A DNA stretch of 37,524 nucleotides from a virus. Its lineage: Duplodnaviria; Heunggongvirae; Uroviricota; Caudoviricetes. Below, one piece after another: positions 5,842 through 36,827 of this stretch (positions are counted from its first letter, which is position 1; each line of letters opens with the position of its first letter). Both the position numbers and the translations under genes were made by a program. The notes beneath the pieces were generated by a model, which was given only the letters and a program-made list of their open reading frames with translations, did no database searches and had not been told where the DNA came from. The stretch lies in the IMG/VR virus record IMGVR_UViG_2718217884_000001, positions 1-37,524 of that record; one strand, written 5' to 3'.

Positions 5842-6068
5842 TGGCTGATTCAATGGACCTTGTACAGCAGCGCGTTGAAGAAGAACGCCCGCGCCATATC
5901 CACACCGCCCGCAATAAAACGCCGGGCGTTTCCCGTGTTCTCTGCATTGATTGCGATGCGCCGATCCCGCCAGCTCGCCGCCGCGCCATTCCGGGCGTGC
6001 AGTGCTGCGTCACTTGTCAGGAAATCGCAGAGCTGAAAGGCAAACACTACAACGGGGGTGCTGTATGA
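5841..6068 (+). CDS. TraR/DksA-type C4 zinc-finger protein
   Basis: 75 aa with CIDC...N17...CVTC four-Cys motif; common upstream of gene A in P2-like phages. Confidence 0.65.
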   Translation: MADSMDLVQQRVEEERPRHIHTARNKTPGVSRVLCIDCDAPIPPARRRAIPGVQCCVTCQEIAELKGKHYNGGAV

Positions 6069-6925
6069 GCACTATTCTGAAATGGGCGGGAAATAAAACC
6101 TCCATCATGCCGGAACTGATTAAGCATCTTCCTGCTGGCACGCGACTGGTTGAACCTTTCGCGGGTTCATGCGCTGTAATGATGGCGACAGACTATCCTC
6201 ATTATCTTGTCGCGGATATTAACCCAGACCTGATAAATCTTTTTAAGCATATTGCATTTGACTGCGAGAAATTTATTTCAAATTCAAAAGGATTCTTTTC
6301 AGGCACAAATAGCGCTGAGTCTTATTACAACATCCGTCAGGATTTTAATCATTCGGCTGAAACCACCGATTTCTGGAAAGCTGTATTTTTCCTTTATCTT
6401 AATCGCCATGGTTATCGTGGGTTGTGCCGCTATAATTTGAGCGGTCATTTTAATGTCCCTTACGGTAATTATAAAAATCCGTATTTTCCTGAAAGTGAAA
6501 TACGCGCTTTTGCAGAAAAGGCTCAACGCGCAACGTTTATCTGTGCCAGCTATGACGAAACACTGGCGCTGCTGCAGGCTGGTGATGTTGTTTATTGTGA
6601 TCCGCCATACGATGGCACATTTAGCGGTTATCACACTGCCGGTTTTACAGAAGACGATCAGTATCATCTGGCGTCTATTCTTGAGCGCCGGTCATCAGAA
6701 GGTCATCCGGTTATCGTGTCCAACAGCGACACGTCCCTGACCCGTTCGCTTTATCGTAATTTTACCCGCCATCGCATCACTGCAAAGCGCAGCATGGGTG
6801 TGGCTGCCGGCGAGAGTAAATCTGCAGCAGAAATCATCGCCACAAAATCAGCTGGCTGGTTTGGTGTCGATTTGGCGTCCGGTCCAGATATCTCGGTGGA
6901 AACTGAGGTGCGGGCGTGGCAGTGA
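6065..6925 (+). CDS. dam: DNA adenine methyltransferase (Dam family, N6-A MTase)
   Basis: [23 protein letters not shown]...FAGSCAVMM (AdoMet motif) and DPPY catalytic motif; ATGA overlap with upstream gene. Confidence 0.85.
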
Positions 6926-9324
6926 GTAAATTCACATTACATAATGCACCAACCACCGGCGGCTCGAATGAGGCCGCCGTGGCCTTTTCATGGAATAACC
7001 CCAAAAAAGCGGTTAACCCATATCTGGACCCGGCGGAAGTTGCGCCGGGGTCTGCGCTTTCAAACCTGATTGCTCTTTACGCTGCGGATAACGAGCAGGA
7101 GCAGCTGCGCCGTGAGGCGCTGAGCGATGAGGTCTGGGAACGCTATTTCTTCAATGAATCCCGTGATCCTGTCCAGCGCGAAATGGAGCAGGACCGGCTG
7201 ATTAGTCGTGCCAAAATGGCGCGCGAGCAGCAGCGTTTTAATCCCGATCTGGTCATTCTGGCTGACGTTAACGCCATGCCGTCCCATATCAGCAAGCCTC
7301 TGCTGGAGCGGATTAAATATTTCCATAGCCTGGGCAGAGCAAAAGCCTATTCCCGCTACCTGCGCGAAACAATTAGGCCCTGTCTTGAGCGGCTGGAGCG
7401 CGTGCGTGACAGTCAGGTGTCTGCCTCTTTCCGGTTCATGGCAAGTCATGACGGGCTGGAGGGGCTGCTGGTACTGCCTGAAATGAATCAGGATCAGGTC
7501 AAGCGTCTTTCCACGCTGGTTGCGGCTCATATGAGCATGTGTCTTGATGCGGCCTGCGGTGATCTGTTTGTCAGCGACGATGTTAAACCAGAAGAAATCC
7601 GCCAGGCATGGGAAAGGGTTGCAGCAGAGGCGATGCGCCTTGAGATCATCCCGCCTGCGTTTGAGCAGTTACGCCGCAAAAAGCGTCGACGCAAGCCGGT
7701 GCCCTATGAACTGATCCCACCGTCGCTGGCGCGGATGCTGTGCGCGGACTGGTGGTATCGCAAATTGTGGCAGATGCGCTGCGAGTGGCGGGAGGAACAG
7801 CTGCGTGCTGTCTGCCTGGTCAACAAAAAAGCGTCCCCGTATGTCAGCTATGAAGCCGTGATCCACAAGCGCGAGCAGCGCCGCAAATCGCTGGAGTTCT
7901 TCCGCTCACATGAGCTGGTCAACGAAGACGGTGACACGCTGGACATGGAAGACGTGGTGAACGCCAGTAACAGCAACCCGGCACACCGCCGTAATGAAAT
8001 GATGGCCTGTGTTAAGGGACTGGAGCTGATAGCGGAAATGCGCGGAGACTGCGCAGTGTTCTATACCATCACCTGCCCGTCACGCTTCCACGCAACCCTC
8101 AACAACGGCAGACCTAATCCGAAGTGGACCAGTGCCACAGTCCGGCAGAGCAGTGACTATCTGGTTGATACGTTCGCCGCTTTCCGCAAGGCAATGCACA
8201 AGGCCGGGCTGCGCTGGTATGGCGTCCGCGTTGCGGAGCCGCACCATGACGGCACAGTGCACTGGCATCTGTTGTGCTTCATGCGCAAAAAAGACCGCCG
8301 TTTCATCACTGCGATGCTGCGCAAGTTTGCCATCCGTGAAGACCGCGAGGAGCTGGGCACCAACACCGGGCCGCGCTTCAAATCCGAGCTAATCAACCCG
8401 CGCAAGGGCACGCCGACCAGCTACATCGCCAAATACATCAGCAAGAACATCGACGGGCGTGGGCTGGCTAAAGAAATCAGCAAAGAAACCGGCAGATCGC
8501 TGCGTGACAGTGCCGAGCATGTCAGCGCCTGGGCGTCACTGCACCGTGTCCAGCAATTTCGTTTCTTTGGTATTCCAGGGCGTCAGGCATACCGCGAGCT
8601 GCGCTTGCTGGCTGGTCAGGTGGCGAGAGTGCAGGGCGAACGCAAAGCGGGTGCGCCGGTACTGGATAATCCGCGTCTGGATGCGGTACTGGCGGCGGCT
8701 GATGCGGGCTGCTTTGCCACCTACATCATGAAGCAGGGCGGCGTGCTGGTTCCCCGCAAACATCACCTTGTCCGCACGGCTTATGAGCTTAACGACGAAC
8801 CGAGCGCCTACGGCGATCACGGTATCCGTATCTATGGCATCTGGTCCCCGATTGCAGAGGGCAAGATTTGCACGCACGCGGTGAAGTGGAAAAAGGTTCG
8901 TAAGGCCGTTGATGTTCAGGAGGCGGCAGCCGACCAGGGCGCTTGCGCCCCTTGGACTCGTGGCAATAACTGTCCCCCTGTTGAAAATCTGAACAAATCA
9001 GGGGGGGATTTACCCGATATTAAAACTATGGATGAGAGGGAGCTGCAGGAATATCTCCACAACATGGGCCAGAAGGAACGGCGGGAGCTGACAGCCAGGT
9101 TAAGGCTGGTAAAACCGAAGCGGAAAAAAGCATATAAACAGACTATTTCGGATCAGCAGCGCCTGCAGCTTGAGGCAGAACTGAGTTCCAGAGGGTTCGA
9201 TGGTAGCGAGTCAGAGATTGACCTGCTTCTGCGCGGCGGCAGTATTCCGTCAGGTGCCGGGCTGCGTATTTTTTACCGCAACCACCGTCTGCAGGAAGAT
9301 GACAAATGGCGTCAGTGGTACTGA
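6916..9324 (+). CDS. A: Replication initiation endonuclease (P2 gpA family, rolling circle)
   Basis: 802 aa, GTG start overlapping dam stop; contains conserved segment around HxH and tyrosine-containing YIAKYISK characteristic of gpA. Confidence 0.88.
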
Positions 9325-9919: not shown

Positions 9920-10052
9920 CGAACGTTGCGGACGATAAAACTGGTTTTTACCGTCCGCAAGGTTGAACAACGAGCCACGCGAGGCGTTAGCGCTGTTGTG
10001 CATGTCTATGCCGCATGAAATCGCATGATCGTTTGAGGATCGTTTTTGCTCA

Positions 10053-10078
10053 GGCCCGCCAGAACTGGCGGGCTTTTG
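10053..10078 (+). terminator. Rho-independent terminator after SOS operon
   Basis: GCCCGCCAG-AACT-GGCGGGC hairpin followed by TTTTGCTT. Confidence 0.55.
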
Positions 10079-10122
10079 CTTATGTCATGCAGGTGCATGA
10101 AAACCACTACACAAAGCGGGCA

Positions 10123-10141
10123 GGCGTGGCGGGGATACGAG
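10123..10141. other. Candidate cos (cohesive end) site
   Basis: GGCGTGGCGGGGATACGAG; first 13 nt identical to my recollection of the 186 cohesive end GGCGTGGCGGGGAAAGCAT; position near Q 3' end. Confidence 0.35.
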
Positions 10142-10240
10142 CGCGCGCTGGTTGGTTTGGGACAGCTTTCAAGAGCTATGTCTCATTTTTGCTTGGACGG
10201 ATAGATTACTCTACTCAAAACATGTGAAATGGAGATAAAC

Positions 10241-10423
10241 ATGCCGTATCAAGTTAAAGCTTATTGTCCTTGTTGTGGGGTCGCTGCAAGTGGTGATCTG
10301 AACAAAATTGAAGAGGTATTTGGTTTTAGAATGATGGAAGGGGAACGTTTGATTCCACAATCATATTGTCGCAGATGTCGTCGATTAAGATGTTCTCCAA
10401 ATGATAAAAAGTGCGGAGCATAA
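10241..10423 (+). CDS. Cys-rich zinc-ribbon protein, unknown function
   Basis: 60 aa from ATG 10241 (GGAG 6 nt upstream); CPCCG...CRRCRRLRC; AT-rich codons; 3-nt gap to next gene. Confidence 0.55.
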   Translation: MPYQVKAYCPCCGVAASGDLNKIEEVFGFRMMEGERLIPQSYCRRCRRLRCSPNDKKCGA

Positions 10424-10426
10424 AAG

Positions 10427-10696
10427 ATGGCGGTCTATTGTGTAACGTATGACTTGAAAGCTCCAGGCAAGAACTATGATGATGTTTTTACCTATCTCAA
10501 AAAGTTTGACTACTGCAAACATTTAGAATCCTTTTGGTTAATCGATACCACGCTTTCTGCAGCGCAATTGCGTGATGGACTTAAAGCAAATGTTGATAGT
10601 AACGATGTGATCTTTGTTGCTCGTTTACAAAAATCTTGGGCCTCATTAAATTATTCTTGTTCTACATGGTTAAAGGCTCCTGGTCGAAATTGGTAA
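10427..10696 (+). CDS. 89-aa protein of unknown function, co-operonic with zinc-ribbon ORF
   Basis: GGAG RBS; N-terminal beta-strand-like VYCVTYDL; AT-rich; followed by terminator hairpin. Confidence 0.55.
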   Translation: MAVYCVTYDLKAPGKNYDDVFTYLKKFDYCKHLESFWLIDTTLSAAQLRDGLKANVDSNDVIFVARLQKSWASLNYSCSTWLKAPGRNW

Positions 10697-10703
10697 ATAA
10701 ATT

Positions 10704-10730
10704 AAGGCCGCATGATTAGCGGCCTGTTTG
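10704..10730. terminator. Bidirectional terminator hairpin between small cassette and Q
   Basis: GGCCGC-ATGATTA-GCGGCC with T-rich tracts on both strands. Confidence 0.5.
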
Positions 10731-10758
10731 AATATTGTTGTTGATGAGTAGGTGATTA

Positions 10759-11805
10759 CTATTCATCACCTAAATTTAACTTGTAGGGTTCAAAGCGTAT
10801 TACATCTTCTTGTAACCAATCATTGAGTTCTTGCAGCCTTTTTTGGAGGGGGATTAGTTCGTTTCTTACAAAAACAAGGCTGGCCTTTTCCACATCCCCA
10901 AAACCCCCAACATTGCTTGGCATGATCCCCATCATCTGTGGCGGCACACGGTGCGCTGCCATCATGTCATCGCGGCTCACGTTCTTGATGTTCAGAAACT
11001 CATCCTTTGCTGCTACCTCTGATAGTGGGATTATCTGAATGCCGTCCTTCTTCCCGTTGGGCGAATACATAAACAGGTTGCGGAAGTTGCCTGGCCCTTT
11101 GGCGCTTTTCATGGCCTGGCGGATGTTGTTCACGTCCTCCTGGTTCTGCGCGGCGTCGGTCATGTACATGATAAAGCCCGCGTGGCTGCCGTTGATGTAG
11201 TACTTGCGGCGGAACAGCGTGGCGGACTCATTCAGAAGGGCGGAAGGGATAGCGGACAGGTATTCTGGTAGTCCATAAATCTCCTGGTTTAAGTCCGGCT
11301 CCATCAGGTGGAAGATGCTGCCTTTGGTGAACTCGTAGGGCTGCGTGGTCATGCCGTATTGCACAAACCAGTAAGTGTCGAGGTCGGTCCCGCGGCGGGT
11401 GTATTTCGCCAGCGATGGCTCCAGTGACAGAATGCCGCCCAGCCGGTTCGTCCGTTTCTCCAGATAGGCATTACCAAACACCAGGTAGTCCTGCACGAAG
11501 CGGCTGAATGCCTGCTGGCTCAGCAGCGGATGCGGGATAAACGTGCTGGTCAGGATGTTGCGCTTAACGGCAATCGGTGAGCTGTGATGCACGGCGGCGC
11601 GGTAGGTGCGAGCCAGGCCGTCAAAGCTCACGGGCGGCTCATACCATTTGTCCATCTGCACGCATTCCACATAGTCCAGCAGTTCGCGGCGGTCCAGTAC
11701 CGGGATAGGATCGCCAAAGCTGAATGCTTCGGCTTGAGTTGTGTTCTTCTGCTGCGCGGCTTCCTGTACTGGCGCGGTACTGGTCAGGGCGTCGTGTTCA
11801 CTCAT
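10759..11805 (-). CDS. Q: Portal protein (P2 gpQ)
   Basis: 348 aa; position and size match P2 Q; start overlaps P stop. Confidence 0.88.
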   Translation of the reverse strand: MSEHDALTSTAPVQEAAQQKNTTQAEAFSFGDPIPVLDRRELLDYVECVQMDKWYEPPVSFDGLARTYRAAVHHSSPIAVKRNILTSTFIPHPLLSQQAFSRFVQDYLVFGNAYLEKRTNRLGGILSLEPSLAKYTRRGTDLDTYWFVQYGMTTQPYEFTKGSIFHLMEPDLNQEIYGLPEYLSAIPSALLNESATLFRRKYYINGSHAGFIMYMTDAAQNQEDVNNIRQAMKSAKGPGNFRNLFMYSPNGKKDGIQIIPLSEVAAKDEFLNIKNVSRDDMMAAHRVPPQMMGIMPSNVGGFGDVEKASLVFVRNELIPLQKRLQELNDWLQEDVIRFEPYKLNLGDE

Positions 11806-36462: not shown

Positions 36463-36509
36463 TTTGGTGGAGCTGGCGGGAGTTGAACCCGCGTCCGAAA
36501 TTCCTACAT
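36463..36509 (-). repeat. attR core: 47-bp direct repeat (within intact ssrA 3' end)
   Basis: Identical to 2294..2340. Confidence 0.9.
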
Positions 36510-36827
36510 CCTCGGTACTACATGCTTAGTCAGTCTTTACATTCGCTTGCCAGCTGCGGACGGACACGCCACTAACAAACTAGCCTGATTAAGTTTTAAC
36601 GCTTCAACCCCAGGCAGGGCTTCCACGCGATCTCTTTTGGGTTTGACCTCTCTTGATCCCCGTCCTAAGAGCGGAGGCTAGGGAGAGAGGGCTCTAAGCA
36701 GGTTATTAAGCTGCTAAAGCGTAGTTTTCGTCGTTTGCGACTATTTTTTGCGGCTTTTTACGAGGCCAACCGCCCCTCGGCATGCACCTTGGGTTTCGCA
36801 AATCCCGTCGAATCCAGAATCAGCCCC
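36465..36827 (-). ncRNA. ssrA: tmRNA (SsrA), intact
   Basis: Reverse complement begins GGGGCTGATTCTGGATTCGACGGG and ends GGTTCAACTCCCGCCAGCTCCACCA; tag region GCAAACGACGAAAACTACGCTTTAGCAGCTTAA (ANDENYALAA) present. Confidence 0.95.

Follow-up and report, generated by a model that had tools for sequence, protein, structure and literature searches.

Two separable small genes, for a zinc-ribbon protein and a stand-alone Cas2 relative, in a cargo slot beside cos of a P2-like prophage

P2-like prophages carry an established defence hotspot in the region between gpA and gpQ (Rousset et al. 2022, PMC9122126), and cargo genes are expected there. The Toutatis system consists of tutA, encoding 64 amino acids (aa), and tutB, encoding a putative methyltransferase, in one superintegron cassette of Vibrio cholerae, to which it is reported to be nearly restricted; TutA, which is described as homologous to a recognition domain of Hpy99I, is reported to be necessary and sufficient for anti-phage activity, and tutB to be dispensable (Darracq et al., 10.1101/2024.07.02.601686). 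TutAB is named as an antiphage defense system in PMC12614218. Proteins related to Cas2 occur outside CRISPR systems, although published accounts touch on them only briefly: Cas2 homologs without an antitoxin are found on mobile elements, and Cas2 relatives have been discussed as toxins (PMC3506569); "Cas2-like proteins" in integron cassettes have been mentioned as unpublished observations (PMC3710099); and BPSL1038 of Burkholderia pseudomallei is an orphan Cas2/VapD-like DNase from a non-CRISPR context (PMC10491678). Here, we describe a two-gene cassette in a P2-like (Peduoviridae) prophage of Escherichia coli, available as virus record IMGVR_UViG_2718217884_000001, the whole 37,524-nucleotide (nt) stretch of which we call the window. 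The cassette lies beside the cohesive-end site (cos) and encodes a 60-aa Cys-rich zinc-ribbon protein, designated zn, and an 89-aa protein, designated c2. The latter (WP_024221516) appears as "hypothetical" in the hotspot locus table, and it was not assayed there (PMC9122126).

The reading that we favor, with a probability of roughly 0.55, is that zn and c2 are two stacked, independently mobile and horizontally acquired morons of a defence type, with a function that we infer, which sit in a cargo slot between cosL and tQ. Like other cargo of the gpA–gpQ hotspot, the cassette is located between gpA and gpQ beside cos, is variably present and has an atypical composition. Its low GC content (36–39% over positions 10200–10800, compared with 52–60% in the flanks) and its patchy presence, in 17 of the 1,241 E. 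coli genomes having this cos (17/5,426 E. coli genomes overall), support the view that it is a foreign, variable segment. The original prediction for this locus, made from the sequence alone, had described two small open reading frames (ORFs) in an AT-rich segment, 3 nt apart and each preceded by GGAG, had raised the question whether the locus varies among P2-like prophages and had suggested a defence moron; the description of the ORFs is confirmed, the locus does vary, and the defence reading is reasonable.

Both ORFs are genuine genes under strong purifying selection. Comparisons between divergent copies, with a pS of 0.5–0.9 and near-saturated synonymous sites, gave dN/dS values of 0.005–0.13 for zn and 0.04–0.19 for c2, and both products have full-length matches in PHROG (phrog_19700, E = 7e-44, for zn; phrog_1090, E = 5e-30, for c2). 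Nevertheless, PGAP annotates c2 only, with nothing under zn in any of the 17 E. coli genomes having it in RefSeq. An upstream ATG at 10229 would yield a 64-aa form of zn; Met-1 of the 60-aa form is invariant in the family. We also considered that zn might be a non-coding part of cos, which was discarded in view of its dN/dS of at most 0.13 and of the fact that its coding region is kept behind a different upstream region in islands linked to ssrA.

The two genes are not an obligate pair but are separable. Of 5,426 E. coli genomes, the same 17 have both, as two alleles ~80% identical, and the pair is confined to loci in which c2 shares at least 70% identity with the copy of the window, namely those in Peduoviridae of E. 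coli, Klebsiella, Citrobacter and Kluyvera. Elsewhere, each gene is found without the other. Salmonella P2-like prophages display cos, the same ~100-bp leader, zn, the same hairpin and then the portal gene, leaving no room for c2. zn is also alone in the ssrA-linked islands, beside an integrase and a GAPS4 system and behind an unrelated AT-rich upstream region (three of these islands, L018–L020, also adjoin smpB), as well as on Providencia contigs beside a resolvase, and it is present in 46 non-enteric genomes. Conversely, zn is missing from the surroundings of c2 at 31 of 41 IMG/VR loci and at 11 others, together all c2 loci with 58% identity or less. In Pseudomonas abyssi, c2 forms a single-gene integron cassette with attC-like flanks beside IntI; marine contigs have it next to Thoeris and Tae4, Mycolicibacterium between a pair of integrases, and Vibrio harveyi within a mobile region. 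Temperate phages carrying it include those of Enterococcus, Staphylococcus pseudintermedius and Mannheimia. From one lineage to the next, the neighbours of c2 show no homology, and no partner is conserved. Moreover, two loci that carry both genes (L003 and L025) have near-identical zn (pS 0.15) next to very divergent c2 (pS 0.83), and these incongruent alleles point to recombination between zn and c2.

Profile matches and a predicted structure place c2 in the Cas2 superfamily, though not as a canonical member, in agreement with the Cas2/VapD resemblance originally suspected by eye. The protein matches the Pfam Cas2 family (PF09827) with E = 0.002 (18.7 bits), and PADLOC gives only weak Cas2 matches for it (Cas2b, E = 1e-3). 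Among its relatives, 33 of the 75 scanned match PF09827 at E ≤ 0.01, the best with 3.3e-9. The AlphaFold2 (AF2) model of c2, based on 24 homologs (pLDDT 89.5), shows a β1-α1-β2-β3-α2-β4 order, with strands at residues 2–9, 28–33, 36–41 and 61–66, and helices at 18–24 and 45–53. When this model was searched against the PDB with Foldseek, the top 11 matches were Cas2 chains (TM scores of 0.55–0.70), VapD appearing at rank 26, and the fold evidence agrees with the PF09827 matches among the relatives. Sequence-profile searches of the PDB with c2 and with zn returned nothing meaningful, a RING-like BRE1 match (E = 0.28) being dismissed. Residues Y8, D9, L10, Y17, S35, W37, R49, D60 and W81 are conserved family-wide; the Y8-D9 pair, with D9 at the end of strand 2–9, shows no variation among the 24 close homologs and reaches at least 90% conservation among 75 distant homologs. 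We take these residues to correspond to the Cas2 motifs, namely an aromatic-Asp pair ending β1, a Ser-x-aromatic in β3 and an Asp before β4.

This family is large. A profile search covering 1.84 billion representatives of clusters at 50% identity retrieved 3,742 cluster representatives at E ≤ 1e-3, nearly all of 85–95 aa. We found no cas gene near c2 in the window or in ~15 homolog loci, as judged from annotated or Pfam-labelled neighbourhoods, and no CRISPR array near the members examined; the absence of cas1 and CRISPR near these members indicates that c2 is a stand-alone protein of the Cas2 superfamily rather than a CRISPR component. It shares with CRISPR Cas2 its length of ~90 residues, the Tyr-Asp ending β1, the Ser-x-aromatic in β3, the Asp before β4 and the top structural matches, but differs in its neighbours, in forming a large family of its own on phages, integrons and islands, and in a conserved Trp-rich C-terminal segment (W71, W81). 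With VapD, whether paired with VapX in Haemophilus influenzae or solitary as in Helicobacter pylori (HP0315), it has in common a Cas2-like fold, the β1 Asp and, in the window, a small upstream gene, and solitary VapD genes do exist. However, the upstream zinc ribbon is widespread alone and absent from most c2 loci, and VapD ranks below ~20 Cas2 chains. BPSL1038 is also a stand-alone Cas2 fold with a conserved catalytic Asp in a non-CRISPR context, and offers a nuclease precedent for orphan Cas2 relatives; in contrast to c2, it belongs to another family, marked by an extra helix and a D11(X20)SST motif, has not been reported from phages and is not in the top 50 structural matches.

Phage copies of c2 are typically antisense to the flanking early genes, and in at least 10 phage lineages (L021, L038–L064) the stop codon of c2 overlaps that of a convergent small ORF by 4–8 nt. 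Such an antisense, tail-to-tail layout is how a moron with its own expression is built. The convergent ORFs were considered as a hidden partner and discarded, since they are not homologous across lineages. A few members of the solo Cas2-like family are longer and display tandem duplications or N-terminal extensions (P0048, 184 aa; P0111, 169 aa; P0062, P0085 and P0092, ~111–114 aa). In Staphylococcus phage SN8 of S. pseudintermedius, the lysogeny module of a c2-homolog carrier (L022, 5427–6240) also encodes DUF4231 and TIR-domain proteins, which are likely further defence cargo.

In the zn family, seven cysteines (C9, C11, C12, C43, C46, C51 and C58) are invariant or near-invariant, and its members share a core, F-G-F/Y-R...I-P-Q-S-Y-C-R-x-C-R. 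PADLOC, NCBIfam and Pfam gave no match for zn, and neither did Foldseek with its AF2 model (pLDDT 76); the only notable fold match of the zinc-ribbon family, to Hpy99I, is tentative. With a profile search, further members were detected in Vibrio, Providencia, Pectobacterium and Psychromonas, along with numerous metagenomic proteins of 57–66 aa; some of these are named "hemagglutinin" by NCBI. A Vibrio homolog (P0226; 58 aa, 53% identical to zn) resides in superintegrons, followed after 65 nt by a gene for a 220-aa N6_N4 DNA methyltransferase, both genes lying between attC-like sites, in five different cassette neighbourhoods. Taking one genome per species, we surveyed 48 loci, 46 of them non-enteric; V. 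cholerae was absent from the zn loci of this survey. A gene for a Dam-like D12 methyltransferase is adjacent to zn in 34 of the 46 non-enteric loci, mostly 10–15 nt upstream on the same strand, while a DpnII endonuclease gene lies 2–100 nt downstream in 14, and a PD-(D/E)XK gene takes its place in three. These counts identify a DNA methyltransferase as the usual partner of the zn family.

In gut Firmicutes, the zinc-ribbon gene lies inside GATC-type restriction-modification (R-M) operons, with a helix-turn-helix (HTH)-Dam (D12) methyltransferase, zn and DpnII separated by gaps of 2–15 nt (L077–L121; e.g., L087 1902–4051 and L096 1795–3057). The same order is seen in Sulfurospirillum, Arcobacter, Moritella and one Nanoarchaeota metagenome-assembled genome, and several loci have the methyltransferase and zn without an endonuclease. 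A 501-aa protein (L122, 2–1507) combines a PAPS-reductase (PP-loop) domain with a C-terminal copy of the zinc ribbon, a fusion suggesting that the latter may be a portable nucleic-acid-recognition module. The position of zn 2–10 nt upstream of DpnII in the Firmicute relatives is reminiscent of R-M controller (C) proteins, but these are small HTH proteins, not Cys-rich zinc ribbons, and in the window zn has no endonuclease gene behind it.

The original prediction had recognized the zinc ribbon but missed that zn belongs to a methyltransferase- and restriction-associated family that, by analogy, fits the published description of TutA. The two proteins are similarly small (64 aa for TutA, 60 aa for zn), and in Vibrio the relatives of zn are encoded together with a DNA methyltransferase in a single integron cassette, just as tutA is with tutB. 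On the other hand, zn is found beside cos in a P2-like prophage rather than in an integron, its family is widespread rather than nearly confined to V. cholerae, and no methyltransferase gene lies beside it in the window, where c2 follows (in Salmonella, nothing does). The nearest methyltransferase gene, at 5951–6925 on the plus strand, encodes a D12-class Dam DNA adenine methyltransferase (Pfam E = 7e-71), and its end overlaps the start of gpA (6916–9324). We conclude that zn is probably a TutA-like small anti-phage or DNA-recognition protein, an identity that we infer by comparison with TutA as published.

The features of the cassette are listed in Table 1. A 661-bp stretch that covers it has identical copies in nine complete E. 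coli chromosomes, flanked on one side by the genes for Dam methylase, the gpA replication endonuclease and DinI, and on the other by portal, terminase and capsid genes.

Table 1. Features of the zn–c2 cassette and its boundaries in the window
Feature	Coordinates	Strand	Basis and remarks
cos-like cohesive-end site	10123..10141	+	Sequence GGCGTGGCGGGGATACGAG; left boundary of the cargo slot
Cassette leader	10142..10240	+	GGAG ribosome-binding site at 10231-10234; presumed weak promoter
zn, 60-aa Cys-rich zinc-ribbon protein	10241..10423	+	ORF and translation; ATG 10241, TAA 10423
c2, 89-aa stand-alone Cas2-superfamily protein, putative nuclease	10427..10696	+	ATG 10427, TAA 10696; own GGAG at 10413-10416; 3-nt gap after zn (10424-10426)
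GC-rich hairpin	~10705..10726	both	Best read as a shared bidirectional terminator
Portal gene Q	10759..11805	-	ORF; right slot boundary; annotated phage portal protein in identical E. coli loci

The cos-like site GGCGTGGCGGGGATACGAG is comparable to P2 cosL GGCGAGGCGGGGAAAGCAC. This motif is present in the window and in all P2-like loci that we looked at, with a 60-bp core kept across E. coli, Salmonella and Klebsiella copies, and ~1,245 E. coli records match the query in the cos part only. The leader, which aligns among the zn-bearing loci of E. coli, Salmonella and Klebsiella, is conserved only in zn-carrying prophages and absent from other P2-like phages having the cos core. Downstream, the hairpin (GGCCGC-N7-GCGGCC, 7 bp, GC-rich) has a folding free energy of −14 kcal/mol (z = −2.1 compared with shuffles), and it directly follows zn in the c2-less Salmonella loci and c2 in the E. 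coli and Klebsiella variants. The two genes had been predicted to end in a hairpin terminator: the hairpin is real, but a terminator scan places it on the minus strand. The P2 reference has cosL at 1–19, tQ, the terminator of the Q–P operon, at 160–181 on the minus strand and Q at 187–1221; the hairpin of the window occupies the tQ position and, together with the minus-strand call, is best read as terminating the cassette on the plus strand and the Q–P operon on the minus strand.

The cassette thus sits in the cosL–tQ interval, to the Q side of cos. This is not the slot of old and tin, as originally suggested, since in the P2 reference these genes are at the opposite end of the linear genome, on the A side, before cosR. 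The cassette resembles old/tin and other gpA–gpQ hotspot cargo in consisting of variable, AT-rich accessory genes beside cos, but it is much smaller and lies on the other side of this site. "Empty" relatives, such as P2 and Yersinia phage MLG42, have ~150 nt from cos to the stop codon of Q, and in Klebsiella phage ST11-VIM1phi8.4 (L124, 1626–3052) an AIPR abortive-infection gene occupies the same cos-to-Q position, which shows that the cosL–tQ interval accepts cargo separately from the old/tin slot. In the window, the A-side slot (9920–10122) is empty, with only a terminator after dinI (10052–10075), while related cassette-carrying prophages can hold three further cargo genes there; the A-side and Q-side slots vary independently. 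Zn-carrying relatives, with or without c2 (L002 2319–3887; L003 1055–3709; L014/L016 1–2664; L012/L017 864–2698), have differing multi-gene A-side cargo, comprising three unannotated genes (E. coli PigCaeca_2), GAPS4-like genes, or GmrSD with HEPN (Salmonella).

Two further features of the window were noted. A 70-aa ORF runs across cos (10015–10227, plus strand), shorter versions of which are recorded as hypothetical proteins in Yersinia and Klebsiella phages; we hold it to be spurious and probably not a gene, as packaging would cut it. Rfam detected no known RNA in the cassette region, its sole match in the window being a full-length tmRNA (ssrA) gene near the right end (36465–36827, minus strand), which indicates that the prophage adjoins ssrA.

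How, then, might two such morons work? zn and c2 would be co-transcribed from a weak promoter in the leader, just downstream of cos, with transcription ending at the shared hairpin, and both would be expressed in the lysogen. zn would be a non-catalytic, TutA-like DNA-recognition module acting on incoming phage DNA. A dedicated methyltransferase partner might be made unnecessary in enterobacteria by the Dam methylase of the host or the prophage, which is speculation; E. coli is Dam-positive, and the D12 Dam gene of the prophage is 3.3 kb upstream of the methyltransferase-less zn. c2 would be a small dimeric nuclease acting alone in phage–host or phage–phage conflict, possibly in lysogen-expressed exclusion or abortive infection, with no part in CRISPR adaptation.

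Several observations weigh against this reading. The c2 protein of the window falls below the gathering cut-off of PF09827 (18.7 compared with 23.8 bits), and its Foldseek matches to Cas2 are borderline (E ~2e-3) for a ferredoxin-like fold that is very common. A sigma-70 consensus scan of the leader found no good promoter, which is why the promoter there is presumed. Since members of the zn family lie between the genes for the methyltransferase and the endonuclease, zn could be a regulator rather than an effector. Finally, within E. coli, Citrobacter, Kluyvera and Klebsiella, zn and c2 are always together, with a conserved junction of 3–6 nt, which fits functional cooperation as well.

That last point leads to the alternative that survives best, that zn and c2 are one two-component defence in which zn senses DNA, perhaps its methylation state, and c2 is the nuclease effector in place of DpnII or PD-(D/E)XK. 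The tight junction and the constant co-occurrence in these four genera (17/17 in E. coli) speak for it, as do the persistence of the pair across alleles with near-saturated synonymous divergence and the nuclease gene directly downstream of zn in other lineages. Yet many lineages keep one gene without the other, under purifying selection, recombination has separated alleles of the two, and TutA reportedly suffices for defence by itself; we therefore regard a single two-component system as unlikely. A more far-reaching proposal seems to us quite improbable: the zn family would provide the effector in a form of "mini restriction" gated by methylation and free of nucleases, and would be coupled in enteric P2-like prophages to a solo Cas2-family nuclease effector outside CRISPR. 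The zinc ribbon would bind unmodified sites (e.g., GATC) on incoming DNA, while a Dam-type or N6/N4 methyltransferase would shield self.

We consider it very unlikely that the cassette serves the phage in counter-defence, with c2 as a Cas2 decoy that blocks spacer acquisition and zn acting in connection with the Dam methylase or with cos packaging, as a controller or to counter restriction. True, c2 is a Cas2 homolog on temperate phages of CRISPR-bearing hosts, zn is beside cos in a prophage that encodes its own Dam methylase, and its relatives lie upstream of endonuclease genes as controller proteins do. However, c2 homologs retain 30–45% identity in hosts whose Cas1-Cas2 types are unrelated, and c2 also lies on chromosomes, within integrons and defence islands, which makes the decoy idea unlikely. 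In addition, its position antisense to early lytic genes is unusual for anti-defence genes, zn is away from any cos in ssrA islands, on plasmids and in Firmicute chromosomes, and most P2-like phages are without both genes. Last, a VapXD-like type II toxin–antitoxin or addiction module, as the original prediction had entertained, with c2 as an RNase toxin and zn as its antitoxin, is highly improbable and was rejected: the small-gene-first order, the 3-nt gap and the sizes do resemble VapX–VapD, VapD is among the structural matches of c2, and Cas2 relatives have been discussed as toxins (PMC3506569), but the pair is not conserved outside enteric Peduoviridae, c2 lacks zn and any conserved partner in 31/41 viral loci, in further islands and where it makes up an integron cassette by itself, zn is without c2 in many prophages, plasmids and R-M operons, the alleles are incongruent and recombine independently, and Pfam, PADLOC and NCBIfam hold no antitoxin signature for either gene.

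For P2-like prophages, these findings add a conserved 60-aa gene beside cos that is missing from RefSeq annotation and, within a known hotspot, a second cargo slot, the cosL–tQ interval, distinct from that of old/tin. They also bear on annotation practice, as a tight two-gene arrangement is insufficient to call a toxin–antitoxin pair. zn probably adds a new member, from a new setting, to a kind of protein described only very recently; its family appears to be that of the smallest protein so far reported to confer phage resistance autonomously. This family is far wider than reported for TutA and is embedded in Dam/DpnII R-M operons of gut Firmicutes, which provides a testable lead, through methylation, on its mechanism. 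c2, in turn, falls in a stand-alone branch of the Cas2 superfamily that is large and essentially uncharacterised. Its ~3,700 clusters ride temperate phages, integron cassettes and islands without a link to CRISPR, and the function of this branch bears on what Cas2 did before CRISPR. If the mini-restriction proposal were true, CRISPR adaptation modules would have recruited their Cas2 from mobile toxins or nucleases of the sort that the solo Cas2 family represents.

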